From NCBI GenBank assembly GCA_964601805.1, contig CAZROW010000002.1, positions 21,172-85,071 of the forward strand: a stretch of DNA of 63,900 nucleotides. The letters run 5' to 3'. The DNA comes from an uncultured Enterobacteriaceae bacterium. GTDB lineage: Bacteria; Pseudomonadota; Gammaproteobacteria; Pseudomonadales; Pseudohongiellaceae. Below are positions 9,375 through 53,348 of the stretch, piece by piece. How positions within the stretch are numbered: position 1 is the stretch's first letter; each line of letters begins with the position of its first letter. The notes under the pieces were generated by a model. It had not been told where the DNA came from and ran no database searches. It saw nothing but the letters and a program-made list of their open reading frames with translations. Made by a program: the position numbers and the translations under genes.

Positions 9375-9384
9375 CTCCTGCGTT

Positions 9385-21268: not shown

Positions 21269-21544
21269 TCAGGAATTTACCGCGTCTTTGAGTGCCTTAC
21301 CCGCTTTAAATGAAGGAACCCTGGCAGCAGCGATCTGGATAGGTGCACCAGTCTGGGGGTTACGACCAGTGCGAGCCGGACGATCCTTGACGTTAAAAGA
21401 GCCAAAGCCAACGAGTGATACTGAATTGCCTGATTTCAATGATGCAGCAATAGCATCGGTCATGGCATCAATAGCACGGGCAGCAGCAGCTTTTGGTAAA
21501 TCGGCAGTTACAGCAACAGCGTCAATTAATTCTGATTTATTCAC
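21269..21544 (-). CDS. hupB: Nucleoid protein HU beta
   Basis: 91 aa: [11 protein letters not shown]...[21 protein letters not shown]. Canonical HU, located downstream of lon as in E. coli. Confidence 0.93.
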
Positions 21545-21592
21545 GTTATCCCCTTCTTATGATTGTAGGTTCAAGTTGATGTGGAATTTTTT

Positions 21593-21631
21593 TGTTAACT
21601 ACTTTTGTTAATTACGAATGTTAACTACGTT
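21593..21631. repeat. Three tandem 13-bp repeats TGTTAAYTAC+3 nt in the hupB promoter region
   Basis: Copies start at 21593, 21606 and 21619. Each contains the palindrome GTTAAC or GTTAAT. Confidence 0.8.
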
Positions 21632-21781
21632 TGAATACCCAAATCGAAACCCGATGTTCCTTCTTCAAAAATGGCTTCGATTTGATGTACCAGCCAGTAC
21701 GTTCGGGAAGCAGTTAGCTAGCCTGTAAGACAACAACTTTATACCAACTGACTCGAGAGAATGTCAAGAAATACGAGGCTT

Positions 21782-24217
21782 TTAGTGAGTATTAATAGAT
21801 TTTTTTCCTATCTGTTTGACCTCGTTCTCAGTTGTTTTTGAGGAACCTTTTTCAAGTGCTTGAGATTTATTATCTTCCACCGGTTCCGGCATGTATTGCA
21901 ATGCAATCTCAAGAACTTCATCAATCCATTTTACGGGTTTGATTTCGAGGTCGGCCTTGATGTTATCCGGTATTTCTTTCAGGTCTCTTTCGTTTTCTTT
22001 CGGAATGATGACAGTCTTTATATCACCTCGATGCGCGGCAAGAAGTTTTTCCTTCAATCCGCCGATGGGTAACACCTGTCCACGCAGGGTAATCTCTCCT
22101 GTCATGGCGACATCTTTCCTGACTGGAATATTGGTCAGTACAGAGACCAGTGCGGTGCACATGCCAATACCGGCACTTGGACCATCCTTGGGAGTCGCAC
22201 CCTCTGGCACATGGACATGCAAGTCACTGTTTTCATGAAAGTTTTCTTTGAGCCCCAGGGTGGAAGAACGGCTTCGCAACACGGTGAGCGCTGCCTGGAT
22301 AGACTCCTTCATGATGTCACCAAGGGAGCCTGTCATGGTGGTTTTACCTTTACCCGGGGTCGCCACTGCTTCAATAGTCAGTAGTTCGCCACCCACCTGG
22401 GTCCAGGCCAACCCGTTCACTTGCCCGATGGCATCATTTTCTTCTGCACGGCCAAAGTCATACTTCTGTACACCAACATACTTCTCGATATTCTCTTTCG
22501 TAATTTCGAGTGTTGATGTTTTTTTGTCCAGTGTATGTTCCTTGACGATTTTACGGCAGGTCTTTGCAATCTCTCTTTCAAGACCTCGCACACCAGCTTC
22601 ACGCGTGTAATGCCTGATCAGGTGAATAATGGCCTCATCGGTAAAATGAACTTCTTTTTCACCAAGTCCGTTATTCTTTTTCTGCTTGGGCACAAGGTAG
22701 CGGCTGGCAATATTCAGTTTTTCATCTTCGGTATAACCGGGCAGACGAATAACTTCCATCCTGTCCAGCAAGGCCTCGGGAATATTCATGGAATTGGATG
22801 TACAGATAAACAGGACATCACTGAGGTCGTAATCCACTTCCAGGTAATGGTCGTTAAAACTGTGATTCTGTTCGGGGTCCAGGACTTCAAGCAAGGCTGC
22901 TGCAGGATCGCCTCGATGATCCATGCCCATCTTGTCGACTTCGTCCAGCAATACCAGGGGATTCCTCACGCCCACCTTGGCCATTTTCTGCAATATCTTG
23001 CCAGGCAATGAGCCAATATAGGTACGACGATGGCCGCGAATTTCTGCTTCATCACGTACACCGCCAAGGGCCATACGGACAAACTTCCTGCCGGTTGCCC
23101 GGGCCACGGATTCACCCAGGGAGGTTTTACCGACACCGGGAGGTCCTACCAGGCAGAGGATCGGCCCTTTGAGTTTCTTGACCCGTTTTTGTACAGCAAG
23201 GTACTCAACGATGCGTTCCTTGACTTCCTTGAGCCCGTAATGGTCGTGATCAAGCACCTCTTCTGCCTTGTTGAGGTCTGTGCGAATCTTGGATTTCTTT
23301 TTCCAGGGCACATTGATCATCCAGTCGATATAGGTGCGCACGACTGATGCCTCGGATGACATGGGTGACATCATTTTCAGTTTGTTCAGTTCGGCTGTCG
23401 CCTTTTCCTTCGCTTCCTTGGACATGCCCGCCTCGTCAATCTTGCGTTTCAGCTCTTCAGCTTCGTTGGGCACATCTTCCAGCTCACCCATTTCCTTCTG
23501 GATGGCTTTCATTTGTTCATTCAGGTAGTACTCGCGCTGGCTTTTCTCCATCTGCTTTTTGACACGACCACGAATGCGCTTTTCGACCTGGAATATATCG
23601 ATTTCCGCCTCGATCAGGGACATCAGGTGCTCAATTCGCGGCTTCAGGTTGGCCAGTTCCAGGATGTTCTGTTTTTCCTGCAATTGCAGTGACATATGGG
23701 TGGCAATGGTGTCGACCAGCCTGCTGGGTTCATCAATACTGGTAATGGAGGTCAGGACTTCCGGTGAGATTTTCTTGCTCAGCTGTACATACTGGTCAAA
23801 CTGCGAAAGCAGTGAACGCACCAGGATTTCCGAGTCTTTTTCTTCGACGGTACTGCCGGCAAGGCTGCTGGTCTCTGCACGGTAATAATCGCCATCTGTG
23901 TGCAGCTTTTTGATCTGCACCCTTTCCACGCCCTCGACCAGGACTTTGACGGTGCCGTCATTGACGTGCATGAGCTGGAGCACGGAAGCGACAGTTCCGA
24001 TCTCAAAGACATCTTCCCTGCCCGGGTCATCTTCCGAATGCTGCTTCTGGGCGGCCAGCACTACTTTCTTGTCGGCGGCCATGGCTTCCTTGAGGGCACG
24101 GATGGATTTTTCACGCGCCACAAACAGGGGGTGAACAATCTGGGGGTAGACAACCACGCCTCTCAAAGGCAGAAAAGGCAGGGAGTTGTCCTGGGTGGAA
24201 GCGTCCTGGTTCGTCAT
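21782..24217 (-). CDS. lon: ATP-dependent Lon protease
   Basis: 811 aa with Walker [10 protein letters not shown] and the catalytic serine motif PKDGPSAGI. Confidence 0.96.
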
Positions 24218-27975: not shown

Positions 27976-28797
27976 GGTTTGTTCCTGATTCGAGTTATCT
28001 GTGTTGCATCTGTTAAAAACTGTTTTCACCAGGCCAGAGTACGGCCGATGACTGCCTGACTAACAGCTGAAATCCTGTTACTGGTTCAGAATGTCGATAG
28101 TCGGTTTGCCTGCTTGCGGCTGAATCCTGAAGCTGCACGGATTGTTCAGCCTGACAATGACTTGCCCAAGAGAAGCCAGCACTTTCTGTATTGCGTGCTT
28201 GCACCGCTTAACTGAAGTGCCTGAAATAAAAATACCACTTAAAAATCAAGAAGTTATTTATATTTTTTCAAAAGCAGGCCGGGATTGTGCCACATCAAAA
28301 TGGCTTATTCAATAGCGCTGCAAGTGCACGCAACAAGCGGCTTTGCCCGCATTCACAACGGCCAGTAATCGGGTCATTCAATGACTTGTTCAATGACCAA
28401 CCAGCGAAGCGTTTAAATGATGTTTCAGATCCTTGAAGACACACTCGCCATCCAGGTTCCTGACCATAAAAGCGGCCGAATAAAAAAAATAAATCTTAAT
28501 TTTTGTAAGTGCCTATCGGTTCGATAAATTTTTAATGCATCCCTAACCTAAGTGTCTGAAAACGCCAGCAGGCTGATTAAAATATACACATTTTGCACTC
28601 TTAAGTTTGGGCTATAACTTGTTGATAATTAATTATTATTTAAGCCCTTATACCGTAATTTGGCGGTCTAAACGATTGATTTTTCGATGATTGCGAATCC
28701 AGTGGCTGACGACGGCGGGAAAACAAAGACCACGTGACTGGCATGGATATTGCGCCCTGTTTCAGAAGGGGTAAGGCCATTATATTTTTCTGCACTC

Positions 28798-28882
28798 GTT
28801 AGCCCGAGGCGAATAACCAAATGCTGACCACAGGCATTCAATAATAACAACGAGTTAAACCGGACAGTCGCCTCGGGCTAAC
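28798..28882. repeat. Perfect 14-bp inverted repeat GTTAGCCCGAGGCG / CGCCTCGGGCTAAC enclosing a 57-nt loop
   Basis: Arms at 28798-28811 and 28869-28882. Pairing extends outward with one bulge (CTCGTT / AACGGAG). There is an inner hairpin AATGC..GCATT. It lies about 100 nt downstream of the MMPL gene stop. Confidence 0.85.
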
Positions 28883-28911
28883 GGAGACCAAGCTTTACTC
28901 CCCTGCACCAT

Positions 28912-28941
28912 CAGCCCCATACAGCCCCCAACAGCCCCTAA
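28912..28941. repeat. Three tandem 10-bp repeats CAGCCCC(N3)
   Basis: CAGCCCC occurs at 28912, 28922 and 28932, between the MMPL stop and the large inverted repeat. Confidence 0.8.
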
Positions 28942-28978
28942 GCGAGGTGTACTTCATCTCCCTGATTCGTCCTGCCTG

Positions 28979-31558
28979 TCAGGCTCGCTCTTTTCCCAGC
29001 GGCTTGAACATGATCATTAATCGCGGCAACAAGGTCAGTGCACCTGCAAGTGCCAGACACATGGCCAGGCTCGTCAGCAAGCCGAAATAAATGGTCGGTA
29101 TGAAGTTGGACAGCACCAGGATCGAGAAGCCGGCCACAATGGTAAAACCGGTGTAATACATGGCTTTACCAATGCTGCCATGACAATAGATCATGGTTTG
29201 CGTGTAGTTACCGAAATCCGGGAAACGGGATTTGTAGCGGTGAATATAGTGGATGGTGTTATCCACACCGATGCCTACCGAGATGGCCGCGATGGTGATC
29301 GTCATCATGTCCAGGGGAATGCCGAGCCAGCCCATCAGGCCAAGTACTGACATGGCAGCCAGGATATTGGGAATGATGCCGATGACAGCCAGTTTCCAGG
29401 ACCGGAACAGGACCAGGAACATACCGGTGATTACCAGCAAAACCAGGCCAAGCGTGAGAATTTGTGACTCAAACAGGCTCTGGAGCATGTTGTTGTATAA
29501 AACCAGCATCCCGGTGAGATGGACCTGGTCTGCATCAAAACCGAATTGGCTGGTCAGGCCATTCCTGATGGTGTCGAGCAGATCTTCCCTGACCAGGTCC
29601 GGGGAGGTTTCCAACACACGTATGGAAAAACGGACCTGGTCATTTTCTACCGAGACGTAGGGCCTGAGCAGGCTTTCCTTGTAATCATCAGGAATACGGT
29701 TGTACAACACCGCCAGTTCAATACTGTTCAGTGCTTCCCCGTCATTGAGCTCATAGGCGATACCAAGCAGTGTGGCCAGTGACAACACCTTGCCTGTCTC
29801 TGGAAGGCTGTCCAGGTATTCATGAATCGCGATGATTTCAGCCATCTTGTCACTGGTGAACCAGTACGCGTTGTCATCCGCTGCAGCCACGTCGTCAAAA
29901 CCATCGTCAAAGCCGTCATCGAAACCGCTGTCGAAACCATCATCAAAGTCATTGTCGAAACCACTGTCGAAGCCATCATCAAAGTCATCACCAAAGCCGT
30001 CATCAAAAGCGAAATCGGCTTCATTGCTTTCGCCATTGCCTGAATCAAACGGATTCTCCCGGCTCAAATCGATAATCACATCAAGGGGGGTGGTGCCACC
30101 CATGTTCTGGTCAATGGCAACCATACCCTGGTAGATGTCGGTGTTTTCATCAAAGTAATCGATGAAACTGTTTTCCACCTTCAATCGGCCAATGCCAATG
30201 CCACTGGCAATGAATAACAGGATTGCCGTGATGACAATCGCGTTGCCAAAACGTTGTGTGAAGCGTCCAATCGCCGGCGTGATATCGATTGACTTGGCCC
30301 CCTGCGTCGACAGGTTTGCCCGGAAAAGAACGAGAATGGCCGGAAAAATCAGGAAGGTCAGCATGAAGGCGCAACAAATTCCCATCACCATCATCCAGCC
30401 AAAGTCTATGATGGGTGGAATATCGCTGACCACCAGGGAGCCAAAGGCCACGATCGTTGTCAGGCTGGTGTAGGCGCAGGGTTTGATCATGCTCCTGAGA
30501 GTTTGCTGCAGTCGTTCACCATGGCTGATCCCGGGCAACTCTGTTTCCAGCTCCCGGTAGCGCACAATGAGATGTACCGTTAACGAGATGGTGATAATCA
30601 ACAGCAGTGAGATAAAGTTTGAAGAGATCACCGTCACTGGCCACTCCAGGAAACCCAGAAGGCCAATGACGCACAGTGCGATCGTTCCACCACAGAGCAG
30701 TGGAATGAATACATAACGCGGTTTGCGAAACAGGTAGGCAAGCGCGGCAATGATAAACACCAGGATGGCAGATCCGAACGTGACCAGGTCATTGCGCACG
30801 AAAGTCACCAGGTCATCGGCGATCATGGGCACACCGCCCAGGTAGATTGTTGCATTGTCACGATACTGGTCCAGGATACGCCTGACTGCTGTAATGTCTT
30901 CATGCAATTGCGCGGCATCGGCAACGACAGCTTCCGTATACTGCTTTTCAGTTTCTTCCAGTAAGCTCGCTTCAGTTTGTGACAGTTGACCTGCAGTTTG
31001 CGCCTCGCGCAGTTCAGTACGCCGGGACAGCAATGCTTGCAGTTCGGTGTTGGGGGCAAAATTGACGATCAATGCCGTGGTCTGGCCGTCTTCACTGAGA
31101 AGCACATTCCTGTAGGCTTCACTGCTGGTCAGGTCTTCACGGGCCGCATCCAGGGCTACTCCGGGTGAATCCAGGGTAATGATATTGTCTGCCACTTCAC
31201 TGAGGGAGACATCAGCTACCTTGAAAAGTGGTACTTCAAATATGCTGTCAACAGATTCGACCCCCGCTACGGACAACAAGTCAGCTTTCGCCGCCGTCAG
31301 GGTTTCCAGGGTGGTGCTGGTAAACAGCGGGTCATCGGGGTTGTAGGTGACGAAAACAAAATCACCGGTGCCATAACGGTCACTGATCTCCCGGGAATAT
31401 TCAAGATCCGGATCCCCTTCCACGACCAGTGAATCCGCCGAGGCATCCATGCGGAACTGCTGGCTGTTCCAGCCCAGGAACAGTGCCAGTAAAAGCACGG
31501 CAGACAGCACCAGGTAGGGCCTGCCCAGCACGAGGCGTGTATAGACATTAAATAACAT
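28979..31558 (-). CDS. MMPL / RND-superfamily exporter (HpnN-like, sterol-sensing-domain type)
   Basis: 859 aa. Two blocks of about 6 TM each preceded by a large soluble loop. The N-terminus MLFNVYTRLVLGRPYLVLSAVLLL is typical of this family. The second loop carries an acidic (D-D/S-G-F)n insertion. Confidence 0.75.
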   Translation of the reverse strand: MLFNVYTRLVLGRPYLVLSAVLLLALFLGWNSQQFRMDASADSLVVEGDPDLEYSREISDRYGTGDFVFVTYNPDDPLFTSTTLETLTAAKADLLSVAGVESVDSIFEVPLFKVADVSLSEVADNIITLDSPGVALDAAREDLTSSEAYRNVLLSEDGQTTALIVNFAPNTELQALLSRRTELREAQTAGQLSQTEASLLEETEKQYTEAVVADAAQLHEDITAVRRILDQYRDNATIYLGGVPMIADDLVTFVRNDLVTFGSAILVFIIAALAYLFRKPRYVFIPLLCGGTIALCVIGLLGFLEWPVTVISSNFISLLLIITISLTVHLIVRYRELETELPGISHGERLQQTLRSMIKPCAYTSLTTIVAFGSLVVSDIPPIIDFGWMMVMGICCAFMLTFLIFPAILVLFRANLSTQGAKSIDITPAIGRFTQRFGNAIVITAILLFIASGIGIGRLKVENSFIDYFDENTDIYQGMVAIDQNMGGTTPLDVIIDLSRENPFDSGNGESNEADFAFDDGFGDDFDDGFDSGFDNDFDDGFDSGFDDGFDDGFDDVAAADDNAYWFTSDKMAEIIAIHEYLDSLPETGKVLSLATLLGIAYELNDGEALNSIELAVLYNRIPDDYKESLLRPYVSVENDQVRFSIRVLETSPDLVREDLLDTIRNGLTSQFGFDADQVHLTGMLVLYNNMLQSLFESQILTLGLVLLVITGMFLVLFRSWKLAVIGIIPNILAAMSVLGLMGWLGIPLDMMTITIAAISVGIGVDNTIHYIHRYKSRFPDFGNYTQTMIYCHGSIGKAMYYTGFTIVAGFSILVLSNFIPTIYFGLLTSLAMCLALAGALTLLPRLMIMFKPLGKERA
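29891..30016 (-). repeat. In-frame 12-nt periodic coding repeat encoding DFAFDDGFGDDFDDGFDSGFDNDFDDGFDSGFDDGFDDGFDD
   Basis: Plus strand reads GTC-RTC-RAA-RCC units about 10 times. The repeat lies inside the MMPL ORF and does not break the frame. Confidence 0.85.
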
Positions 31559-42798: not shown

Positions 42799-43662
42799 AT
42801 GGTGATTGGTTGGTATCCCGGGCACATGAACAAGGCCCGCAAGGACATTATACATGTCCTGAAAAAAGTACATGCCGTCATAGAGGTGGTAGATGCCCGC
42901 CTGCCCTATTCCAGCGAAAATCCCTTGCTGCACGAACTCAAGGCAGACAAACCAACCCTGAAACTGCTGAACAAATCCGACCTGGCGGATCCGGCAATGA
43001 ACAAGGCCTGGCTCGACTTCTACCAGGGCGAGGACAAACCTGCACTCACCGTTTGTGGCACGGCTCCCGGCAAACTGAAAAACCAGGTCATCAATCATTT
43101 TGCCAGGCTCCAGAACAACGTTCGACCACCGTTCAGAATCATGATTGTCGGCATCCCCAATGTCGGCAAGTCCACCCTGATCAATGCCCTGGCGGGTCGC
43201 AAGATTGCCAAAACCGGTAACGAGCCTGCCGTCACCAAGGGGCAGCAACAGGTGATGCTGGATGACAATCTTGCCCTTCTCGATACCCCGGGCATTCTCT
43301 GGCCCAAAATAGAAAACCAGGAATCTGCCTACAGACTGGCGGTCACTGGCGCTATCAAGAATACCGCCATTGACCTGGCCGACATCGGTCTGTTTGCCGT
43401 GGGGTTCCTGCAACAGCGCTATCCTGAAAAGTTGGCCGAGCGTTATGGCCTGGAATCGCTTGAAGATGAACCCATACAACTGTTGGAGACTATCGGGGCA
43501 AAGCGAGGTTGCCTGGTCAGGGGCGGCGTGGATTACACCAAGGCTGGCGAAGTCCTGCTCAATGATCTGCGCTCAGGCAAGTTCGGCCTGTTGAGCCTGG
43601 AATCACCCGGAGACATTCCGGCGCCACTCCAGGAAGACCCTGAAGCCGGTGTCACAGGCTAA
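42799..43662 (+). CDS. rbgA: Ribosome biogenesis GTPase YlqF/RbgA
   Basis: 287 aa with circularly permuted GTPase motifs: WYPGHM, NKSDL (G4) preceding GIPNVGKST (G1) and DTPG (G3). Confidence 0.88.
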   Translation: MVIGWYPGHMNKARKDIIHVLKKVHAVIEVVDARLPYSSENPLLHELKADKPTLKLLNKSDLADPAMNKAWLDFYQGEDKPALTVCGTAPGKLKNQVINHFARLQNNVRPPFRIMIVGIPNVGKSTLINALAGRKIAKTGNEPAVTKGQQQVMLDDNLALLDTPGILWPKIENQESAYRLAVTGAIKNTAIDLADIGLFAVGFLQQRYPEKLAERYGLESLEDEPIQLLETIGAKRGCLVRGGVDYTKAGEVLLNDLRSGKFGLLSLESPGDIPAPLQEDPEAGVTG

Positions 43663-44380
43663 GCAGCGCCCTGCCCAGCACCAGCAAGGCTGAAATCACG
43701 CACAACCCGAGCAGAAAAGGCCGGGCAGAATGCCTGTCGATGAACTTGCGCAGCGGTGCAGCTGCCTGAATGCCAATCACTACCCCAATCATCAGCACCA
43801 GGCTGTATCCCAGGTCGGACCAGTGAAACCGTCCGATGAGGATCAATGCAGTCAGTGATACTACGCACCCCATCATGAACAACACTGACAGGTTGGCGCG
43901 CAGCTCAGCTCCCCTGGAATTCTGGTACACCAGGGCGACAGGCGGGCCTCCAATCGAGGAAATCGTGCTCATGAAACCGGAGGCAATCGTGGCAAAGAAG
44001 ATGTTCCGGGGGGTAACGCGAATATTGGCGTGTATCAGGCTGATAAGAACGGCCAGCAATACCAGCACACCAAAGATGAGATCAAAGGTCACTGCCGAGA
44101 CCGTTCCCATCAGGAATGCGGAAGGTGGTGTACCAATCAAGCGCCCGACCAGGGCCGCCTTGAATATCTCCCTGTTGATTGCATGACGGTCTTTCCAGGC
44201 AACCCACATCACCAGGGACAGGGCCGTTGCAATCAGGGGGCCTGGCACCAGGTCGCGGTCTATCAACAGCAGGATGGGCGCAGCCACCATGGCCAGACCG
44301 AAACCTACGGCGGCCTGGATGGCAGTACCAATCGCGACCACACCAATTGCCAGTAACAGGTCCAGCCACGTGAGTGCCAT
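43652..44380 (-). CDS. TauE/SafE (DUF81) family sulfite/organosulfonate exporter
   Basis: 242 aa, about 7-8 TM, with Gly-rich helices typical of TauE/SafE. Last gene of a tight operon (9-nt spacers). Confidence 0.7.
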   Translation of the reverse strand: MALTWLDLLLAIGVVAIGTAIQAAVGFGLAMVAAPILLLIDRDLVPGPLIATALSLVMWVAWKDRHAINREIFKAALVGRLIGTPPSAFLMGTVSAVTFDLIFGVLVLLAVLISLIHANIRVTPRNIFFATIASGFMSTISSIGGPPVALVYQNSRGAELRANLSVLFMMGCVVSLTALILIGRFHWSDLGYSLVLMIGVVIGIQAAAPLRKFIDRHSARPFLLGLCVISALLVLGRALLSL

Positions 44381-44389
44381 GGATAAGCG

Positions 44390-45019
44390 TCAGACGTCTT
44401 TGGCCCGGCGGGCCTTGAACTCTGCAGTCGAGTTACTTTTCGGAAAAGGCTCATCGGGTACGGGCACATCCAGTGCCCTGCATAAGGGCTCCCAGCCCTG
44501 GGTAACATCCCATTCCAGCAGGCGATCAGCGGGTACACCCGCCCTCACGCGTTCGATATGCGCCAGGTAGGCCGCCTTGGCAGATACCGGGTCATCAAAT
44601 CCCCGGGGATAAATACTTTTGTAGATTTCCAGCACCATATCCAGCCAGGCCCGGCGTGCCGGGGTCAGGTCAGGCGGTGGATTTTGTTTCACCGGCAGAA
44701 TTGTTTCACTGGCACTTTTCCACCAGCTGTCGGCATCCCGAAGGGACAGTACTACCAGTGCGTCCGGGTAATACTCGATCAGTGACTCCCACTGGGTCGA
44801 TACCGGCTCATCCACGGCAGCGACATAGCCGTCAAACACCTTGCTCCAGTCAACGGCTTCACCCCGTGCTGCCGCATGCCACAGGGGCGTGTGCGCCTCC
44901 AGGTGCTCAAAGAGCTCTACCATGTGATAACAGGGTCCGCCCAGCAGCTTTTCCAGGGCAAATTTCAGGGACATGGTCCCGGTCCTGCCCAGACCGGCAC
45001 CAATGACTTTCAATGCCAT
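44390..45019 (-). CDS. Small PAPS-type sulfotransferase family protein (Sulfotransfer_4-like)
   Basis: 209 aa. The N-terminal GAGLGRTGTMSL is a 5'-PSB-like P-loop. Size and layout are typical of the bacterial/fungal small sulfotransferase family. Confidence 0.6.
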   Translation of the reverse strand: MALKVIGAGLGRTGTMSLKFALEKLLGGPCYHMVELFEHLEAHTPLWHAAARGEAVDWSKVFDGYVAAVDEPVSTQWESLIEYYPDALVVLSLRDADSWWKSASETILPVKQNPPPDLTPARRAWLDMVLEIYKSIYPRGFDDPVSAKAAYLAHIERVRAGVPADRLLEWDVTQGWEPLCRALDVPVPDEPFPKSNSTAEFKARRAKDV

Positions 45020-45028
45020 AACACTGCC

Positions 45029-46507
45029 TTACCGTGGGTAGAACGGTGGAATCTTGGCGTCAAAATTGACCCAGACAGATTTCGGTTCCGTGTATTCATG
45101 CATGGCGAAATGCCCCATCTCCCGGCCATAACCGGAATCCTTGATGCCACCAAAAGGCGATCCCGGGTGGAAACGCTTGTAGCAGTTAATCCAGACCATG
45201 CCGGCTTCCATCGCCTTGGCGACCTTGTGGGCACGGGTGAGATTATTGGTCCACAGACCACCACCAAGACCGTAAATGCTGTCATTGGCCTGGGCAAGAA
45301 CCTGCTCGTCACTGTTGAAAGTTGAGACGACAACAAAGGGCCCGAATACTTCTTCCTGGCTGACGCGGTCGCTGGCTTTAGCCCTCACGATGGTAGGCTG
45401 CACAAAGCAGCCTTTCTGCAATCCAGGATCATCCGGCTGTTTGCCACCCATGAGAATTTCCCCGCCCTGCTCCCTTGCCACATCACAGAAACTGAGTACC
45501 CGTTCCTGGTGCATCTTGGAAGTCAGCGGTCCCATTTCCGTGCTCGGGTCCAGGGGATTGCCTTGCTTGATGGATGCTGCAAGTGCCGTGAATTTTTCCA
45601 GGAACTCATCGGCAATCTTTTCATGCAGCAACAAACGGGAACCGGCAATACAGGCCTGGCCCTGGTTATGGAAAATGGCAAAAGCGGATCCGCCTACTGC
45701 TGCATCGATATTGGCGTCCTCGAAAATAATATTGGCGCCCTTGCCGCCAAGTTCCAGTTGCACGCGTTTGAGATTGCCTGCCGAGGCCTCAACAATCTTG
45801 CGGCCTGTCACCGTGGAACCGGTAAATGAAATCTTGTCGATACCCGGATGCTCTGCCATGTACTGGCCGGCAATATGGCCATAGCCTGGCACCACGTTGA
45901 TCACGCCGGGAGGAAAGCCCACTTCGCGAGCCAGTTCGGCGATTCGCAAAGTAGACAGTGGCGTCAATTCAGCCTGCTTCATCACCACGGTGTTTCCGGC
46001 AGCCAGTGCGGGCCCAAGTTTCCAACTGGTAAACATCATCGGGAAATTCCAGGGCACAATCTGTCCTACCACACCGACCGGCACGCGCTGGACATAATTC
46101 AGGAAACCGGTATCCACGGGAATTACCGTTCCTTCATTCTTGTCCGGCATACCGGCGAAATAGCGATAGGTAGCCACGGTCCTCAGAACATCGAGATTAT
46201 GCGTGTCTCGAATCGGGTGACCTGTGTCCAGGGATTCGATGAGGGCCAGATTGTCCCGGTCGGCTTCAATGGCATCGGCCAGTTTGCCAATCAGCACACC
46301 ACGGTCTGACGGGTTCATGTCTGCCCAGGCAGGAAACGCATCGCGCGCTGCCTTGACCGCCTTGTCAATATCGGCCTCCTTGGCTTCGGCCACATTGGCC
46401 AGCAAGGAGTTGTCATAGGGATTAAAGACTTCAAAGGTGGCGCCGTCGACGGCGTCCACAAATTCATTATTGATAAAGAGCTGGGTTGGATAATTGGCTT
46501 CGGCCAT
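45029..46507 (-). CDS. NAD(P)-dependent aldehyde dehydrogenase
   Basis: 492 aa with ALDH motifs ELGGKG and catalytic Cys (GQACIAGSR). Substrate not deducible. Position is analogous to 4-hydroxymuconic semialdehyde dehydrogenase (HapE/PnpE) or to SafD. Confidence 0.85.
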   Translation of the reverse strand: MAEANYPTQLFINNEFVDAVDGATFEVFNPYDNSLLANVAEAKEADIDKAVKAARDAFPAWADMNPSDRGVLIGKLADAIEADRDNLALIESLDTGHPIRDTHNLDVLRTVATYRYFAGMPDKNEGTVIPVDTGFLNYVQRVPVGVVGQIVPWNFPMMFTSWKLGPALAAGNTVVMKQAELTPLSTLRIAELAREVGFPPGVINVVPGYGHIAGQYMAEHPGIDKISFTGSTVTGRKIVEASAGNLKRVQLELGGKGANIIFEDANIDAAVGGSAFAIFHNQGQACIAGSRLLLHEKIADEFLEKFTALAASIKQGNPLDPSTEMGPLTSKMHQERVLSFCDVAREQGGEILMGGKQPDDPGLQKGCFVQPTIVRAKASDRVSQEEVFGPFVVVSTFNSDEQVLAQANDSIYGLGGGLWTNNLTRAHKVAKAMEAGMVWINCYKRFHPGSPFGGIKDSGYGREMGHFAMHEYTEPKSVWVNFDAKIPPFYPR

Positions 46508-46565
46508 AGTACGGGTCCCTGCGTTGGTCTTGGGTTAATCGTTGTTTATTTTTGGAAAAACCGAT

Positions 46566-46604
46566 GGGCAAAAACAAATCCGGCCTGCATCAAACAGGCC
46601 GGAC
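46566..46604 (-). terminator. Intrinsic terminator/attenuator between the dioxygenase large subunit and the ALDH gene
   Basis: The minus-strand RNA reads UCCGGCCUG-UUUGAUG-CAGGCCGGA followed by UUUGUUUUU. It starts 23 nt after the stop at 46627. Confidence 0.75.
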
Positions 46605-46626
46605 TGAGGCGTCTTGTCGGGCTGGC

Positions 46627-47634
46627 TTACCAGCGACTTGCCGTGATCGGGAACGGTTCAAGCTCGCCGCTGGCATATTTCTCATCCAGGCCGGGAGTAC
46701 CGTTTTCCAGTACCATCAGCATGGAACGCTTCGGTGAATAGCCCTGGTGGCGGATGTCGGCAGGCATGGCACAGACATCGCCTGACTTCATGACGATGCG
46801 ACCACGCGGGTTGCCGGAATCCTTGTCCTGGATATTCCAGTGGATTTCGTCAGTCAGCTGGATAAACCATTCGTTGCGGTCATTACCGTGAATTACCGGC
46901 AGCATGTGTTCCTCGCTGGTCACACAGCAGATACAGGCGCGGGTAATGGAGGTAAAGGATGGATTCCAGGTAACGTCGGCACGGGCAATATGATCAAACA
47001 GGTTGAAGGCATGCACTGAGTCTTCAAACCCGGGTTCAACTTCAATATCCGGCTGATCATAATCCAGGTCAGCAAAGGCCCTGTTGATCGGGTGACCGGT
47101 TTCATCGGAACGCGGCTGCACATCACCGGGCAGACCGAGCATACGGCGGGCCGGCTCAAAACCGCGAGTCAGCGGACCGGACGCTTCCTGCGTCTTGGCA
47201 CCCAGCGGGGAGCCTGTTTCCAGTGGTGCACTCAGGGGATCATAACCTTCGTTGATCCAGTCCTTGGAGATGGTTTCAAAAGCCACGCGGACGTCATCGG
47301 TATTGAAGGTCTCCAGGTAATCCACACCTGTATCCTTGTGTCCCTTGCTGTAGGTACCGGCATAGATATCAACGGTGCCGTAGTGATTCTGTGTGCCAAA
47401 TACGTCATCAAAGAAAATCCAGCCGTAAAAGAAGCCCCAACCGATATCACGCACCATGGCGCGCAGGAAGCGATCGACTTCCATCGTATGGGTACCTTTC
47501 GGCCATTCTACGTGAACAAAATAGGCATCACGTGTGAACTTGAAACCGCCAAACTGGAAACTGCGATATCCCAGGACGGGATCCGGTTCGGAAGCAATGA
47601 CTGAAACTTTTTCCGGGGTAACTTCGGTATTCAT
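46627..47634 (-). CDS. Cupin dioxygenase large subunit, hydroquinone 1,2-dioxygenase (PnpD/HapD)-like
   Basis: 335 aa with a C-terminal cupin carrying H249-x-N251-x3-E255 ... H296. The spacing is identical (offset -7) to the Fe ligands His256/Asn258/Glu262/His303 that I recall for PnpD. Preceded by a 163-aa cupin and followed by an ALDH, as in the hapCDE/pnpCDE order. Confidence 0.55.
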   Translation of the reverse strand: MNTEVTPEKVSVIASEPDPVLGYRSFQFGGFKFTRDAYFVHVEWPKGTHTMEVDRFLRAMVRDIGWGFFYGWIFFDDVFGTQNHYGTVDIYAGTYSKGHKDTGVDYLETFNTDDVRVAFETISKDWINEGYDPLSAPLETGSPLGAKTQEASGPLTRGFEPARRMLGLPGDVQPRSDETGHPINRAFADLDYDQPDIEVEPGFEDSVHAFNLFDHIARADVTWNPSFTSITRACICCVTSEEHMLPVIHGNDRNEWFIQLTDEIHWNIQDKDSGNPRGRIVMKSGDVCAMPADIRHQGYSPKRSMLMVLENGTPGLDEKYASGELEPFPITASRW

Positions 47635-47680
47635 TGCGTTATTCCTCTCAATTTACAAATTGAATTCTTGGGTTGACTGC

Positions 47681-48172
47681 TTATTTCAGGGTGCAGATTT
47701 CTGACCATTTCTCGACACTTTCAGGACCAGCCGAGGTCTGGATCAACACCACACCGGGTGCGTCAGCTTTCATCTGATAGGCTGCACCTTTTGGCAGGAG
47801 CACTTCATGGCCGCGGCGCGCAGTGACCTTGCCCATGCGCTTGCCTTTCGGGTTTTCGGCAAGCCGACAGGCACCGTACTCGTGATCAGGCTTTTCGTCG
47901 TCCTCAAGCTGGTAAAACTCAAACTCGACTTCCCCTTCCATGACGATGGCAAACTCATCGTGTGGCGCGGTGTACCAGGGTGAGGTGCCTTCTGCACGGG
48001 TGGTTTCTGCACAGTATTCCAGATTCGAGGCCACCATGATGCGTTCATAGGGCTTGGAATCATTGCAGATTTCAAAGATGTTGGAAAAAGCATAATGCTT
48101 GAGATCATCGTTGAGCTCGATGGTCCCTTTGTCGTAGGAGTCGAGTGACCCTATCATGGTTTTATAGCTCAT
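47681..48172 (-). CDS. Cupin dioxygenase small subunit (PnpC/HapC-like)
   Basis: 163 aa single cupin (HDEFAIVMEGEVEFEF...GHEVLLPKGAAYQM), 46 nt upstream of the large subunit. Size matches the roughly 18-kDa small subunit of type II hydroquinone dioxygenases. Confidence 0.45.
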   Translation of the reverse strand: MSYKTMIGSLDSYDKGTIELNDDLKHYAFSNIFEICNDSKPYERIMVASNLEYCAETTRAEGTSPWYTAPHDEFAIVMEGEVEFEFYQLEDDEKPDHEYGACRLAENPKGKRMGKVTARRGHEVLLPKGAAYQMKADAPGVVLIQTSAGPESVEKWSEICTLK

Positions 48173-48432
48173 AGATTTCCCCTCGGGAGGTCTCGGCCTG
48201 GGCCGGTTATTGCTGATTCTTGTGACTTTGTTGTTTCTTTTTTGATTCTTGTAGGAAGGCAGTATGGCAATAAAGACCGGGCCAGTGGTTGATACCGATC
48301 AATCCTGCATGCTGCCGATGATCTATGCCACCTTATCTTCCCCTAAACAGATATTCGATAATATGAAGTTCGAAAGCAGGAATCAAGCGGGCTTTGGCCT
48401 GTAGTTTGAGCCCGGCCAGCCCGCTCAGCCCC

Positions 48433-50205
48433 CTAATCCGGCAAGGCAAACACGTATTGCCGGCTTTCAATACCCGGTGGTGTGCCTTCAATATACCGGG
48501 CCTGTCCTGCGGTAGTGACCGACGTTCCGGTACCTACAGAGATATACTGCTTGCCATTGACGGCAAAACTGATCGGGTAACCGGTAATGGAAGAGCCCAG
48601 GTTGGCTTCCCACAAGACTTCACCGGTTTCCTGGTCAAAGGCCCTGAAATTCCCTTCAATATCGCCCCCAAAGACCAGTCCGCCGGCCGTAGCCACCATG
48701 GAGAGGGCTGTACCGGCGGTTTCAAAAGTCCAGAGGGTCTCACCGGTTTCAGCGGAAATGGCATAAACAGTGCCCACATTGGTCCGTCCCTCGGCCAGTT
48801 TCTCCCGGCCAAAGAAGCCGTAAAGGACATCCGGGTCCTGTTCATCCTTGTCAGCGGTGACCGTCAGGTCCATACAGGTATTTTGCAGGCCGTAAAACAT
48901 GGTATTGGTCTGGGGACTGTATGCCCCCTCCTGCCAGTTCTTGCCACCCCCGGTGGAAGGACAGATTTCCCGCTGCTGACCGGTTTCACTGAACAGGGCT
49001 TCCGGATTGACCGTTGCCTTACCCGTTTCACCGTCGATGGAAGCCAGGACGTTCTGGTAAACCGTGGGCCTGGCCCACAGGAATTCGCCGGTTTCACGAT
49101 CTATGGTGTACACCACGCCTGTCTTGCCCGGTATGCCGGTAATGACCTTGTATTCCTTTTCCGGATCAATCGACGGATTGATCCAGGGAACCGCTTCCGG
49201 ATCAGGTGAAACCCGGGTGTTGACCAGCAGACGTTCAAACGGATGATCAAGGTCCCAGTGGTCCACCAGGTGCTGGTAGTACCAGGCGATGCTGCCGTCT
49301 TCCGGACGTATGGCCAACGTGGAGTTGTGATACAGGTATTCCTTGTCATTCCCTGCGAGCAGGAACTTGGGCGCCGGTGCCGTCACCGAAGTGCCCATGT
49401 AAATCAGGTTGAGTTCGGGATCATAACTGGGGGCCATCCAGGCACCCACATGCCAGCGTTTGTCCCAGGGCATGTCGCCCCAGCTATCGGTATCATCACC
49501 CGTAGGTGACTGGATCAGGTTCAGGCGCCAGATTTCCTCACCGGTTTCGGCATCGTGGGCCGCAATAAAGCAGGCCTCGGGCCCGGCAGGCGGCTGGCAG
49601 TTACGCCCGGAGACGGCCATACCATTGATCACTACCGGCCCATTGCTCTGCTGCGCCGGATGGGTGCGGTAGTCCAGGATCTTTGTTTCCCACTTGATCT
49701 CACCGGTGTGTACATCCAGTGCCAGGATATAGTCATCATTGGTGGTATAGATAATGGCATCGTCATAGATGGCCACATTGCGCATGGTCTTGTTGGCCCC
49801 CAGGTAGTCACCCAGGTCTTCCGGCATCTGGCGTACATACTCCCAGAGCATGTCTCCGGTTGTGGCATCGCGTGCCTGGATTACATCACCGGGGTTGGGC
49901 AGGTACATCATGCCGTCATAGACAAGCGGGGTGCCCTCCTGGATAGGGGTGCTGGGCAGCACACCGTCATGAAGCTCCGCTGACCAGACCAGTTCCAGGG
50001 CGCCGACATTATCCTTGCTGATCTGTTCCAGGGGGCTGAAGCCCCAGGAATCGAGGGTACGCCTGAAGCTTAACCAGTCCTCCGGATCAGGGTTGCGCAG
50101 CATCTCATCGGTCACCGGTACGTAATCACCCGACTGCGCAAGGCAGGCCGTACCAATCAAAAGGCTCAACAGGATACCTGTCGGTTTGGAGATTCCAGCG
50201 ATCAT
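48433..50205 (-). CDS. Periplasmic PQQ-dependent dehydrogenase (methanol/ethanol family beta-propeller)
   Basis: 590 aa with a signal peptide, repeated W-motif propeller blades and the catalytic-region motif VDHWDLDHP aligning with PHDEWDYAG/DYDG of MDH/XoxF. There is no CC pair anywhere in the protein. Confidence 0.8.
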   Translation of the reverse strand: MIAGISKPTGILLSLLIGTACLAQSGDYVPVTDEMLRNPDPEDWLSFRRTLDSWGFSPLEQISKDNVGALELVWSAELHDGVLPSTPIQEGTPLVYDGMMYLPNPGDVIQARDATTGDMLWEYVRQMPEDLGDYLGANKTMRNVAIYDDAIIYTTNDDYILALDVHTGEIKWETKILDYRTHPAQQSNGPVVINGMAVSGRNCQPPAGPEACFIAAHDAETGEEIWRLNLIQSPTGDDTDSWGDMPWDKRWHVGAWMAPSYDPELNLIYMGTSVTAPAPKFLLAGNDKEYLYHNSTLAIRPEDGSIAWYYQHLVDHWDLDHPFERLLVNTRVSPDPEAVPWINPSIDPEKEYKVITGIPGKTGVVYTIDRETGEFLWARPTVYQNVLASIDGETGKATVNPEALFSETGQQREICPSTGGGKNWQEGAYSPQTNTMFYGLQNTCMDLTVTADKDEQDPDVLYGFFGREKLAEGRTNVGTVYAISAETGETLWTFETAGTALSMVATAGGLVFGGDIEGNFRAFDQETGEVLWEANLGSSITGYPISFAVNGKQYISVGTGTSVTTAGQARYIEGTPPGIESRQYVFALPD

Positions 50206-50363
50206 ATTTTCCCCCGGTCATTCTTCTTATAATGATTATGCGAGCCGGACGATGCCGGCAAGTGCCCGCTGAAACTAGCAGACTTTATTGGGGGTGTCAC
50301 TCTACAAAGCAGGCGGTTCCCGTTATACTGCGGGGCTTTATCAGGCACCGGCCCCATTCCAAA

Positions 50364-53348
50364 ATGCAGTTAAAAGATTCCACGACATTGTCCCCCCGAA
50401 AACAGGCAAACTCCAAAGTCGACATTTCTCCCCACCCGGCATTTATTCACAAGCGCAGCCAGTTTCTCGAAACACTGAACCTGTCTGTTGAAGAGTATGA
50501 ACATCGCGAAACCGGTGCCATGCACTACCACCTGGCCAGCGATAACCCGGAAAATGTCTTCATGGTCGCCCTGCGTACTGTGCCTATGGATTCCACCGGT
50601 GTGGCGCATATCCTGGAGCATACTGCCCTGTGTGGCAGCCGCAAGTTCCCTGTGCGTGATCCCTTCTTCATGATGATCCGGCGTTCCCTGAACACATTCA
50701 TGAATGCCTTTACCAGCAGTGACTGGACCGCTTACCCCTTTGCCAGCCAGAACCGCAAGGATTTTGACAATCTGCTGGAAGTCTACCTGGACGCCGTATT
50801 TTTCTCGTCCCTGCACGAACTGGATTTTGCCCAGGAAGGCCATCGCCTGGAGTTTTCCCAGCCGGACAATCCGGATTCCCCCCTGGAATACAAGGGGGTG
50901 GTCTACAATGAAATGAAAGGCGCCATGAGCGCCCCGACATCGCTGATCTGGCAACAGCTGTGCAAACACCTGTTTCCGACCACCACCTACCATTACAACA
51001 GCGGTGGCGACCCGTCGGACATTCCTGATCTGAGCTATGAGCAGCTCAAGGCGTTTTACAAAACCCATTACCATCCCAGCAATGCCATCTTCATGACCTT
51101 TGGCAATATTCCCGCCAAGGAACACCAGCAGCGTTTTGAAGAACAGGCATTGAAAGAATTCAAACGCCTGGACGTGCATATCGCCGTCGGTGATGAGCAG
51201 CGCCTGCAGGCCCCTGTCAGGGTCAGGGAAAGCTACCCGCTCGATGAAGAGGACACCGCCAACAAGACCCACGTGGTGATCTCCTGGTTGCTGGGCAAGA
51301 GCACCGAATTGGCTGAAATGTACAAGGCACAATTGCTCGCCGGTGTCCTTCTGGAAAACAGTGCCAGCCCCCTGCTCCAGGTACTGGAAACCACCGAGCT
51401 GGGCAAAGCCCCCTCGCCGCTGTGCGGCCTGGAAGACTCCCACAAGGAAATGAGCTTCATGTGCGGCCTGGAAGGCTGCGCCGATGACAGTACCGAGGCC
51501 ATTGAAAGCCTCATTCTGGATACCCTGACACATATCGCCGACAACGGCATCGACCAGGACAAGGTGGAAGCCTCACTGCATTCTCTGGAATTAAGCCAGC
51601 GGGAAATCAGCGGTGATACCTACCCTTACGGTTTGCAACTGCTGCTTGCCGCACTGTCGACCGCCACCCATCGCGGTGATCCCATTGAATTCCTGGATAT
51701 AGACCCGGTTCTGGCCCAGCTGAAAGAAGATATCCAGGATCCGGACTACATCCCGTTCCTGATCCGCAAGTACCTGCTCGACAACCCCCATCGCGTCACC
51801 CTCACCGTCACGCCCGACTCCGCACTGTCGGAAAAAATGGCGGCGACGGAAGCCAGCAAACTGGCCGCGATCAAAGAGTCCCTTGAAGAAGATGACGTCA
51901 ACCTGATTATCGAGCGGGCCGCCCTGTTGAAGCAGCGCCAGGAACAGGAAGATGATCCGTCAATTTTGCCCAAGGTCACCCTGGATGATATTCCTGCCGA
52001 GGTCAGCTGGCCGGAGTCCTCTGTTCACCACCTCAATGTGGGTGAGTCACAGGCCCCCGCCCACTTTTATGCCCAGGGGACGAACGGCATCAGTTACCAG
52101 CAGATTATCCTGTCCATGCCGGCAATGGATCCGGCGCTTGCCGACATGCTGCCCTACTACACCAGCTGCGTACCCGAGCTGGGCATTGGCTCGCGTGATT
52201 ACCTGGAAATCCAGTCCCTGCAATCTGCCATCAGTGGTGGCATCAATGTCCACAGCACCATGCGCAGCAAGGTGGATGATGAGCAGTCCCTGAACAGTTA
52301 CATGGTCTATTCAGGCAAGTCCCTGTACCCGAACCAGCACCTGGTCAGCGACCTGCTCAGGGATACCCTGCTGGAATGCCGGTTCGATGAACATCAGCGG
52401 ATCAAGGAAATCATGGAGCAGATTTCTGCCCGGCGTGAGCAAAGTATTACCAGCCAGGGACACAGCCTGGCCGTCGGTGTCGCCTGCAGCCGACTCAGCC
52501 CCATTGCCGCCATGAACTACGAAAGTTCGGGAATGGCAGGTATCCAGCAGTTGAAAAGGCTCACTGCAGGCTTCGCAGAGCCGGCCAGTATTGCCGAGTT
52601 TGCCGGACACTTTGAACGCATTCACGAACATCTACTGTCTGCAGACAAACAGTTCCTGCTGATCAGTGAAGACAGTGAACGGGACTTGCTACTCGATAGC
52701 ATCACGCAATCCTGGCAAGGCAAATCCTCGCCGGTTCCAGGTAACGAATTTGTACTCCCCGGTTGCCGGGAGACCGTCAGGGAGGCCTGGCTGGCCAACA
52801 CCCAGGTAAGCTTCTGTGCCATGGCCTTTCCAACGGTACCTGTCGGCCATCCGGATGCCGCGGCGCTGACGGTGCTTGGTGGTTTCATGCGAAACGGCTT
52901 TTTGCACCGTGCGATACGTGAACAGGGTGGTGCCTATGGTGGTGGCGCAAGCCAGGATTTGGGCACGGCCACCTTCCGCTTTTTCTCATACCGTGACCCC
53001 CGCCTTACTGACACCCTGGAGGACTACCGGCGTGCCATCGACTGGTTACTGGAAAGTGATCATGATGCCCGCGCCCTGGAAGAAGCCATTCTTGGCGTGA
53101 TCTCCAGCCTGGACAAACCTTCCTCGCCATCCGGCACAGCCAGGCAGGCGTTTTACAACGAGTTGTTCGGGCGCGATCGTGAGCAACGGGCCAGGTTCCG
53201 TCGCAGTATTGTTGATGTCAGCCTGGAAGAGCTCAAGGCCGTCACCGAAAAGTACATGGCCAACAGCGAACCTGCCCTTGGTGTTATCACCAGCAAGTCC
53301 CGAGCTGAAGAAGTCGAAGCGCTCAACATGGACATACGGCAGTTTTAA
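50364..53348 (+). CDS. M16C (PreP/presequence-protease-like) zinc metalloprotease
   Basis: The ATG at 50364 gives a 994-aa protein with the inverted zinc motif HILEH...E and four M16 half-domains. The upstream part of the track ORF lacks homology signal. Confidence 0.8.
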   Translation: MQLKDSTTLSPRKQANSKVDISPHPAFIHKRSQFLETLNLSVEEYEHRETGAMHYHLASDNPENVFMVALRTVPMDSTGVAHILEHTALCGSRKFPVRDPFFMMIRRSLNTFMNAFTSSDWTAYPFASQNRKDFDNLLEVYLDAVFFSSLHELDFAQEGHRLEFSQPDNPDSPLEYKGVVYNEMKGAMSAPTSLIWQQLCKHLFPTTTYHYNSGGDPSDIPDLSYEQLKAFYKTHYHPSNAIFMTFGNIPAKEHQQRFEEQALKEFKRLDVHIAVGDEQRLQAPVRVRESYPLDEEDTANKTHVVISWLLGKSTELAEMYKAQLLAGVLLENSASPLLQVLETTELGKAPSPLCGLEDSHKEMSFMCGLEGCADDSTEAIESLILDTLTHIADNGIDQDKVEASLHSLELSQREISGDTYPYGLQLLLAALSTATHRGDPIEFLDIDPVLAQLKEDIQDPDYIPFLIRKYLLDNPHRVTLTVTPDSALSEKMAATEASKLAAIKESLEEDDVNLIIERAALLKQRQEQEDDPSILPKVTLDDIPAEVSWPESSVHHLNVGESQAPAHFYAQGTNGISYQQIILSMPAMDPALADMLPYYTSCVPELGIGSRDYLEIQSLQSAISGGINVHSTMRSKVDDEQSLNSYMVYSGKSLYPNQHLVSDLLRDTLLECRFDEHQRIKEIMEQISARREQSITSQGHSLAVGVACSRLSPIAAMNYESSGMAGIQQLKRLTAGFAEPASIAEFAGHFERIHEHLLSADKQFLLISEDSERDLLLDSITQSWQGKSSPVPGNEFVLPGCRETVREAWLANTQVSFCAMAFPTVPVGHPDAAALTVLGGFMRNGFLHRAIREQGGAYGGGASQDLGTATFRFFSYRDPRLTDTLEDYRRAIDWLLESDHDARALEEAILGVISSLDKPSSPSGTARQAFYNELFGRDREQRARFRRSIVDVSLEELKAVTEKYMANSEPALGVITSKSRAEEVEALNMDIRQF

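Follow-up and report, generated by a model that had tools for sequence, protein, structure and literature searches.

Why should a gene for a sulfotransferase lie inside what looks like an operon for aromatic ring cleavage, immediately ahead of a gene for a TauE/SafE-type transporter? This question is raised by six minus-strand open reading frames (ORFs) at positions 43652 to 50205 of a 63,900-nt stretch of DNA from an uncultured Enterobacteriaceae bacterium (Pseudohongiellaceae in GTDB; GCA_964601805.1, contig CAZROW010000002.1, positions 21,172 to 85,071, forward strand). The whole stretch is referred to here as the window. The six genes lie between genes for an RbgA-type GTPase and an M16C/PreP-type peptidase and encode a pyrroloquinoline quinone (PQQ) dehydrogenase, two proteins of 163 and 335 aa, an aldehyde dehydrogenase (ALDH), the sulfotransferase, and the transporter (TauE). 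Our analyses identified a modest local variant of a known ring-cleavage operon and not a new six-gene pathway. The account that we favor, on which our confidence is evenly balanced, is a layered mosaic in which a known hydroquinone module would carry a lineage-specific, co-transcribed add-on for sulfo-conjugation and export.

On the coding strand, 260 nt separate the PQQ gene from the gene for the 163-aa protein, and the gaps that follow are 46, 119, 9, and 9 nt. The stop codon of the TauE gene is overlapped by the end of the convergent RbgA-type GTPase gene, while the M16C/PreP-type peptidase gene is divergent and starts 158 nt upstream of the PQQ gene. An earlier, sequence-only reading of the locus had given the coordinates and strand of all six genes, both flanking genes, and the two 9-nt spacers exactly as they appear in the ORF list, and its family calls held for all six proteins on comparison with profiles and solved structures. 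The features of the locus, in the order of transcription, are as follows.

48433..50205, minus strand: PQQ dehydrogenase (590 aa; PF01011)
48358..48386, minus strand: sigma70-type promoter TTGATT-N17-TATTAT upstream of pnpC (consensus scan and alignment of the group A relatives defined below)
48289..48302, minus strand: palindrome TTGATCGGTATCAA in the pnpC leader, a possible operator or small hairpin (read from the sequence)
47681..48172, minus strand: pnpC/hapC-like small subunit (163 aa; match to 4ZXA_A)
46627..47634, minus strand: pnpD/hapD-like large (catalytic) subunit (335 aa; PF18191, 4ZXA_W)
46567..46605, minus strand: terminator- or attenuator-like hairpin in the pnpD-ALDH gap (scan; 12-bp G+C-rich stem followed by a U-run)
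45029..46507, minus strand: pnpE/hapE-like ALDH, NAD(P)+ (492 aa; PF00171, 4GO3/4GO4)
44390..45019, minus strand: small cytoplasmic Sulfotransfer_4 sulfotransferase, with use of 3'-phosphoadenosine 5'-phosphosulfate (PAPS) presumed (209 aa; PF17784)
43652..44380, minus strand: TauE/SafE (DUF81) membrane transporter (242 aa; PF01925)

The ring-cleavage core

The 163-aa protein, which matched no Pfam family, aligned over residues 3 to 161 with the small subunit of hydroquinone dioxygenase (4ZXA_A; E value, 9.5e-53; 55% identity) and over nearly its full length with 5M21_A (2.4e-42). The 335-aa protein carried the PnpCD_PnpD_N domain (PF18191; 2.1e-49) and matched the corresponding large subunits, 4ZXA_W (1.7e-116; 56% identity) and 5M21_B (2.7e-116). 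Its residues H249, N251, E255, and H296 align to H256, N258, E262, and H303 of 4ZXA_W, the four residues that bind Fe(II) in that structure, and the metal-ligand positions are thus kept. For the ALDH (PF00171; 2.5e-175), the entries 4GO3/4GO4, deposited as a putative gamma-hydroxymuconic semialdehyde dehydrogenase of the PnpE type, scored 752 bits versus 496 or fewer for other ALDH classes. None of the six proteins passed an NCBIfam equivalog model, the best model for the ALDH (HpaE) falling below its cut-off, and the identity of the ALDH was therefore taken from the comparison with structures in the PDB. On these matches, the middle three genes are assigned as true orthologs of PnpC/PnpD/PnpE (HapC/D/E), predicted to encode a hydroquinone 1,2-dioxygenase and a 4-hydroxymuconic-semialdehyde dehydrogenase. 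The gene order hapC-hapD-hapE or pnpC-pnpD-pnpE had been proposed before and is correct, given the matches to 4ZXA/5M21 and 4GO3/4GO4; a placement of the cupin pair outside the PnpCD/HapCD family would have contradicted it, and both proteins fall within that family. The predicted cleavage of hydroquinone or a substituted hydroquinone, and its onward conversion to maleylacetate, is the secure part of our account, by strong orthology to solved or characterized proteins.

Synteny was assessed in 80 species-level genome loci with PnpD relatives (the best 80 of 163) and in 80 metagenome loci. The six proteins and the flanking proteins were mapped onto the 80 genome loci, whose ORFs were then searched with sulfotransferase and TauE profiles, and the metagenome contigs were scanned with TauE using a profile. 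The genes for the small and large subunits were adjacent, co-directional, and in the same order in 80/80 related loci (46-nt gap in the window), and orthologs of the ALDH (71 to 93% identity) came after pnpD in both Gamma- and Alphaproteobacteria.

The succession of small subunit, large subunit, and semialdehyde dehydrogenase is like that of pnpCDEF in Pseudomonas sp. WBC-3, hapCDEF in Pseudomonas fluorescens ACB, and hqdAB in Sphingomonas sp. TTNP3. Unlike pnpCDEF and hapCDEF, however, the window has no linked maleylacetate reductase (pnpF/hapF), upstream monooxygenase, or regulator; as the sequence-only reading had remarked, none was found among the profiled window genes, and a few further ORFs were judged from length and N-terminal sequence alone. 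Nor did the group A and B neighborhoods examined show a maleylacetate reductase of the Fe-ADH family among their called or profiled genes. The window further differs from pnpCDEF and hapCDEF in the attenuator-like hairpin between the dioxygenase genes and the ALDH gene and in an operon tail that carries the sulfotransferase and TauE genes.

Predicted transcription of the operon and its tail

The gap upstream of pnpC contains a sigma70-type promoter whose TTGATT and TATTAT hexamers hardly vary between the window and 10 group A genomes (locus L013 has a single T-to-C change), whereas the surrounding intergenic sequence has diverged. This promoter would give a 5' untranslated region of approximately 180 nt. 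The leader is poorly conserved overall and holds a conserved ribosome-binding site (AAGGGGAA) and the partly conserved element TTGATCGGTATCAA, a perfect palindrome lying ∼60 nt downstream of the promoter. In about 8 of the 11 group A sequences, an inverted repeat resembling TGAT(C)-N-(G)ATCA occupies the aligned position. The palindrome is a candidate operator, although no regulator gene lies nearby, or could form a small hairpin. As 260 nt with the conserved pnpC promoter lie between them, the PQQ gene is regarded as a neighbor of the operon and not a member, probably forming a separate transcription unit.

The hairpin after pnpD had a predicted folding energy of −22.1 kcal/mol (z = −3.95), and none of 200 shuffled sequences folded as well. 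A hairpin with a U-run was found at the same position in most loci of groups A, B, and C (described below) despite their differing sequences. Between it and the ALDH start codon lie 30 to 65 unconserved nt, in which no conserved promoter was seen in the group A alignment. Across the 13 group A genomes, the ALDH and sulfotransferase genes are separated by 6 to 32 nt and the sulfotransferase and TauE genes by 14 to 22 nt, compared with 9 nt each in the window; the translational packing of these three genes, which had been noted earlier, is tight enough for co-transcription. Given the hairpin, the 9-nt spacers, and the lack of a visible promoter ahead of the ALDH gene, the ALDH, sulfotransferase, and TauE genes are probably expressed by read-through, from an operon with one promoter and partial termination after pnpD. 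An Rfam scan of positions 43000 to 51000 with E values of up to 1 returned a chance match to a long noncoding RNA alone and no riboswitch or known leader.

Within group A, dN/dS was 0.02 to 0.05 for the PQQ, pnpC, pnpD, and ALDH genes and ∼0.09 for both the sulfotransferase and TauE genes (dS near saturation), from which it follows that the latter two are under purifying selection and maintained. G+C content is slightly higher over these two genes. That they are carried by a mobile element or island was considered and rejected, as a repeat search identified no direct or inverted repeats flanking them and there is no tRNA gene in the window.

Distribution of the six genes

In the 13 loci of group A (L011 to L023; PnpD 93 to 96% identical to that of the window), the six-gene set is present as far as each contig extends, and M16C, RbgA, and BolA genes flank it as in the window; all six genes and both flanks were visible in 7 of the 13. 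The set is also present on many metagenome contigs. Group B comprises approximately 20 loci (e.g., L024 to L036, L038, L039, L043, and L066; PnpD, 85 to 90%) with the arrangement PQQ-pnpC-pnpD-ALDH, no sulfotransferase gene, and a TauE gene in L029 alone. Here a RapA-like gene lies between the M16C and PQQ genes, and the slot between the ALDH gene and rbgA is variable, being occupied by cobO-like, aminotransferase, or transporter (ABC/efflux-type) genes or a 5-oxoprolinase-like set. Group C loci, from other Gamma- and Alphaproteobacteria (PnpD, 70 to 87%), have pnpC-pnpD-ALDH alone (ALDH, 71 to 85% identical). One of these, L048, has pcaIJ-like CoA-transferase genes and a flavin monooxygenase gene next to it and represents a classic catabolic context for the three genes. 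In many Sphingomonadales loci (PnpD, 69 to 76%), pnpCD is accompanied by an unrelated ALDH (∼33% identical). A neighbor-joining tree of PnpC, PnpD, and ALDH, for which no support values were calculated, placed group A as monophyletic and L029 with L095 as a separate pair.

Among the 80 genome loci, the sulfotransferase gene was found solely in the 13 of group A (including that of Candidatus Eutrophocola), between the ALDH and TauE genes; it was either gained once or lost everywhere else, as far as this distribution suggests. The TauE gene extends somewhat further. All TauE orthologs of at least 58% identity with an upstream flank on their contig come after a pnpE-like ALDH gene. The sulfotransferase gene intervenes in group A-type contigs and is absent in L029 and L095, with an ALDH-TauE gap of 3 nt in L095. 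The TauE-ALDH link is thus somewhat wider than the sulfotransferase link, covering the window's clade and one other small lineage. TauE homologs of 55% identity or less were found in unrelated contexts, with none of the other five genes nearby.

The product of the PQQ gene has an N terminus that looks like a Sec-type signal and matched PF01011 (1.5e-56); its score for the methanol/ethanol family model TIGR03075 (328 bits) was below the cut-off of 480. Its best solved relatives (∼395 to 405 bits) were 9M2C, 4CVB (alcohol dehydrogenase), 7WMD, and 4MH1 (sorbose dehydrogenase), and the closest were deposited as PQQ-dependent alcohol or sorbose dehydrogenases or as PQQ-binding-like proteins. Like these, the window protein is predicted to carry a signal peptide and to fold into a PQQ propeller with eight blades (∼580 aa), as a periplasmic soluble enzyme of the sorbose/alcohol dehydrogenase type. 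A difference lies in the position of its gene beside pnpCD: the gene adjoins pnpC in all group A and B loci (genomes of the Pseudohongiellaceae type) whose contigs extend that far and in no locus outside these groups. PQQ homologs of 58 to 60% identity were located beside tannase, PETase-like esterase, flavin monooxygenase, MFS, or DUF6152 genes, or in tandem, and never with PnpCD.

Two further observations were made on quinoproteins. In several Sphingomonadales genomes (L072 at 7607 to 9478, with equivalents in L050, L053, L062, and L065), pnpC-pnpD is followed by a full-length PQQ alcohol dehydrogenase gene (PF01011; 581 bits in L072) and a different ALDH gene. This was rejected as an independent link between a PQQ dehydrogenase and pnpCD, because the protein is ∼25% identical to that of the window and an unrelated ALDH gene lies next to it; by sequence it is a second, nonorthologous juxtaposition of a quinoprotein with pnpCD, and the L072 pair presumably resembles one for ethanol oxidation. 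Separately, a gene for a small secreted DUF6152 protein was present in L026 (8185 to 9410), L178 (12062 to 13357), L179 (2828 to 4104), and L048 (3933 to 5189), followed in three of the four by an unannotated gene of ∼265 to 290 aa. The pair recurs beside members of the PQQ subfamily, and DUF6152 alone was found near pnpCD in one alphaproteobacterial metagenome-assembled genome (MAG); the pair might serve the quinoprotein as a partner or electron acceptor.

Taken together, these distributions point to layers of different age and not to one pathway: the core is widespread, the PQQ gene is confined to Pseudohongiellaceae-type genomes, TauE is narrower, and the sulfotransferase gene marks one clade. 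The expectation that the six-gene set would be found in other genomes was borne out, by 13 species-level genomes and metagenome contigs, within one clade and not beyond it. Because all occurrences fall in a monophyletic clade with shared housekeeping flanks, this co-localization is inherited synteny rather than independent recurrence. The proposal of a single six-gene accessory pathway was not supported, as sister lineages keep PQQ-pnpCD-ALDH without the sulfotransferase, the PQQ gene stands apart, and the homologs are scattered.

A contig that is the same as that of the window is present in many ENA metagenomes, and the nearest genomes are MAGs from the Pseudohongiellaceae, among them Candidatus Eutrophocola salsuginis and RFVC01. 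The genus Eutrophocola is described as a brackish estuarine ecotype with a genome of ∼3 Mbp (PMC11758582). Unlike the soil degraders that host pnp and hap clusters, the host of the window is a brackish planktonic member of the Pseudohongiellaceae with a genome of this size. In the table of PMC11758582, Eutrophocola corresponds to the GTDB genus RFVC01, and in the figure legends there to RGAU01; JAYQTB, which is Candidatus Eutrophocola salsuginis at NCBI, adjoins RFVC01 among our loci, in agreement with the table.

The remainder of the window consists of housekeeping genes. PAPS synthesis genes, pqq genes, a sulfatase, and a desulfonating enzyme were all absent from the window genes, as judged in part by Pfam and in part by ORF length and N-terminal sequence. 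A CysI-type sulfite/nitrite reductase hemoprotein (NIR_SIR and ferredoxin-like domains) is encoded at 6057 to 7715 on the plus strand, 36 kb from the cluster and unlinked to it, from which it follows that assimilatory sulfur reduction is present in the organism. G+C content is lower at 21001 to 22000 and 28001 to 29000 (0.43 and 0.45, compared with ∼0.54 elsewhere), near the lon/ppiD and tig/MMPL gene boundaries.

The sulfotransferase and the transporter

The sulfotransferase matched PF17784 (Sulfotransfer_4; 3.9e-62, 210 bits), and its solved relatives were 9KF1 (2.4e-51), SgdX2 of sungeidine biosynthesis (8Y9P; 8.6e-34), and the Schistosoma oxamniquine sulfotransferase (4.4e-23). Motifs of the types GxGRTGT and RD..SWW.S bind PAPS in sulfotransferases. 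Their counterparts in the window protein, the N-terminal GLGRTGT and LRDADSWWKS, align with 9KF1 and SgdX2, as does the VD.P position. Of the solved relatives, SgdX2 and the Schistosoma enzyme act on small molecules. The window protein shares fold family and aligned motifs with all three and differs from them in being shorter (209 aa) and in being encoded within an aromatic ring-cleavage operon, not a biosynthetic cluster. A reference cited by PMC11677658 describes SgdX2 as an activating sulfotransferase; literature searches for 9KF1, 9M2C, and SgdX2 otherwise returned nothing usable, and one for hydroquinone dioxygenase together with sulfotransferase returned a single review with no relevant link. 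Homologs of the sulfotransferase (54 to 66% identity) had neighborhoods without TauE and without PnpCD in 5/5 cases, carrying instead genes for GST, glyoxalase-fold, old-yellow-enzyme, aldo-keto reductase, acetyltransferase, or PAE-esterase proteins. This apparent flavor of detoxification was counted in favor of a conjugate-and-export role. In three of the five (L091, L093, and L094), a glyoxalase/VOC-fold gene lay within ∼2 kb, beside GST, old-yellow-enzyme, or acetyltransferase genes, which could be a loose detoxification-like theme or chance.

The transporter covered positions 3 to 235 of the 237 in PF01925 (4.7e-22; 79.2 bits against a gathering cut-off of 32.6) and had no NCBIfam model. 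Like the TauE/SafE anion transporters, it is small and polytopic with a full-length Pfam match. This family includes exporters of sulfite, sulfoacetate, and sulfolactate as well as importers, among them the uptake component TsaS, and its genes stand at the ends of catabolic operons in taurine and sulfoacetate clusters; the window gene is likewise the last of its operon. Unlike those clusters, the window has no Xsc, SuyAB, or similar desulfonating enzyme nearby, and the TauE orthologs are tied to a pnpE-like ALDH. The family in the earlier designation as a DUF81 sulfite/sulfonate exporter thus stands; no desulfonating enzyme was associated with TauE in the window or in related loci. In two metagenome contigs from the same or a sister population (L010 at 9995 to 10722 and L120 at 3471 to 4138), a frameshift divides the TauE gene into two overlapping ORFs.

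From these features, a layered mosaic would operate as follows. Transcription would start at the conserved sigma70 promoter ∼180 nt upstream of pnpC, and the hairpin after pnpD would pass on part of the transcripts, so that the ALDH, sulfotransferase, and TauE genes are expressed by read-through. The two-subunit Fe(II) dioxygenase would open hydroquinone or a substituted hydroquinone to 4-hydroxymuconic semialdehyde, which the ALDH would oxidize to maleylacetate; the reductase acting on maleylacetate must then be encoded elsewhere, unless maleylacetate is not metabolized further. In the window's clade the operon tail would have been extended by TauE after the ALDH gene, with the sulfotransferase gene in between. 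The cytoplasmic sulfotransferase could then attach sulfate to a hydroxyl group on hydroquinone or on a phenolic or benzylic relative, compounds that are redox-active and toxic, and TauE could expel the resulting sulfo-anion, leaving the cell able either to cleave the compound or to expel it. The PQQ dehydrogenase would be a separately transcribed periplasmic neighbor, inherited within the family, whose substrate may be an aromatic or polyol precursor.

Because the two genes are embedded in the tail of the operon and kept throughout the clade, their co-expression with the pathway is likely. A conjugate-and-export side branch, in which hydroquinone or a related hydroxylated compound is sulfated and the sulfo-anion leaves through TauE, is the most likely role for the pair, although we propose it with low confidence. 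A narrower version, in which the operon of these abundant brackish-water bacterioplankton has acquired a eukaryote-like "phase II/III" branch where a PAPS-dependent sulfotransferase makes a redox-inert aryl sulfate of hydroquinone or a related quinol for export by the TauE-family protein, is rather unlikely.

Several points weigh against the favored account. The TauE family includes importers as well as exporters, and the characterized Sulfotransfer_4 members sulfate alcohols and are not known to act on phenols. A promoter may lie within the 3' end of pnpD or overlap the hairpin. The split TauE genes in L010 and L120 hint at dispensability through natural loss of function, or at assembly error. 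The sulfotransferase-TauE and sulfotransferase-pnp pairings occur in one clade with shared flanks, and there is accordingly no independent recurrence to argue for functional coupling. Finally, the variability of the ALDH-rbgA slot in sister lineages means that both genes could be unrelated cargo.

This last alternative, in which the pair has nothing to do with hydroquinone cleavage, landed in the variable slot, and is co-transcribed by position, is possible though not probable. It would account for the other genes in that slot in sister lineages, for the five sulfotransferase-homolog neighborhoods devoid of TauE and PnpCD, for the more distant TauE homologs in unrelated contexts, and for the lack of either gene in the rest of the 80 PnpD loci beyond group A (and TauE in L029). 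It sits less easily with a sulfotransferase gene kept nested between the ALDH and TauE genes in 13 species-level genomes, with TauE directly after the ALDH gene in a second lineage too, and with two genes under purifying selection that show neither a promoter of their own nor mobile-element scars.

A single six-gene pathway that handles sulfated or sulfonated aromatics, or else makes a sulfo-metabolite and exports it, and in which the PQQ dehydrogenase acts first, is improbable. All six genes are indeed co-linear in the 13 group A genomes, where contigs reach, and on many metagenome contigs; the PQQ gene adjoins pnpC throughout groups A and B, and the tannase, esterase, and flavin monooxygenase genes near its homologs provide an aromatic-compound context. 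However, the PQQ gene and pnpC share no promoter, most genomes that keep PQQ-pnpC-pnpD-ALDH are without the add-ons, and the arrangement never recurs independently, outside one clade with shared flanks, all of which make such a pathway unlikely; nor does the window hold a sulfatase, a desulfonating enzyme, or a PAPS synthesis gene.

More doubtful still is that hydroquinone is detoxified to maleylacetate only and that TauE exports this dicarboxylate, with the sulfotransferase gene a later, unrelated insertion. The lack of an Fe-ADH-type reductase in the window and in the group A and B neighborhoods examined and the TauE gene 3 nt after the ALDH gene in a lineage without the sulfotransferase would fit, but the known TauE/SafE substrates are sulfite and organosulfonates, and no dicarboxylate exporter is known in the family. 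Most group B genomes, moreover, have neither TauE nor a linked reductase, and maleylacetate reductase is therefore probably encoded elsewhere. Salvage of aryl sulfates, with TauE importing a sulfate ester of hydroquinone or phenol and the sulfotransferase running in reverse (aryl sulfate + PAP → phenol + PAPS) to free hydroquinone and capture activated sulfate, has general precedent in the reversibility of PAPS-dependent aryl sulfotransferases with activated aryl sulfates and in TsaS, but it is scarcely credible here, since a sulfatase is what cells normally use for this purpose, most pnp loci lack the sulfotransferase, and no comparative evidence points to salvage.

If, as the layered mosaic proposes, the pair acts on the substrate of the operon, the locus would be a rare bacterial case in which an operon for aromatic ring cleavage also includes sulfo-conjugation and efflux, and it would provide a first substrate context for a widespread, uncharacterized bacterial branch of Sulfotransfer_4 and for one TauE/SafE subgroup. 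Should the phase II/III version be true, the cell would have the choice of either burning a toxic quinol or conjugating it, and dissolved aryl sulfates would have a biological source in such cells. If the pair does not act in this way, the locus would be an ordinary pnpCDE module with neighboring cargo. What is gained is an operon model, with its promoter, attenuator, and read-through tail, together with a natural set of genomes with and without the two added genes.

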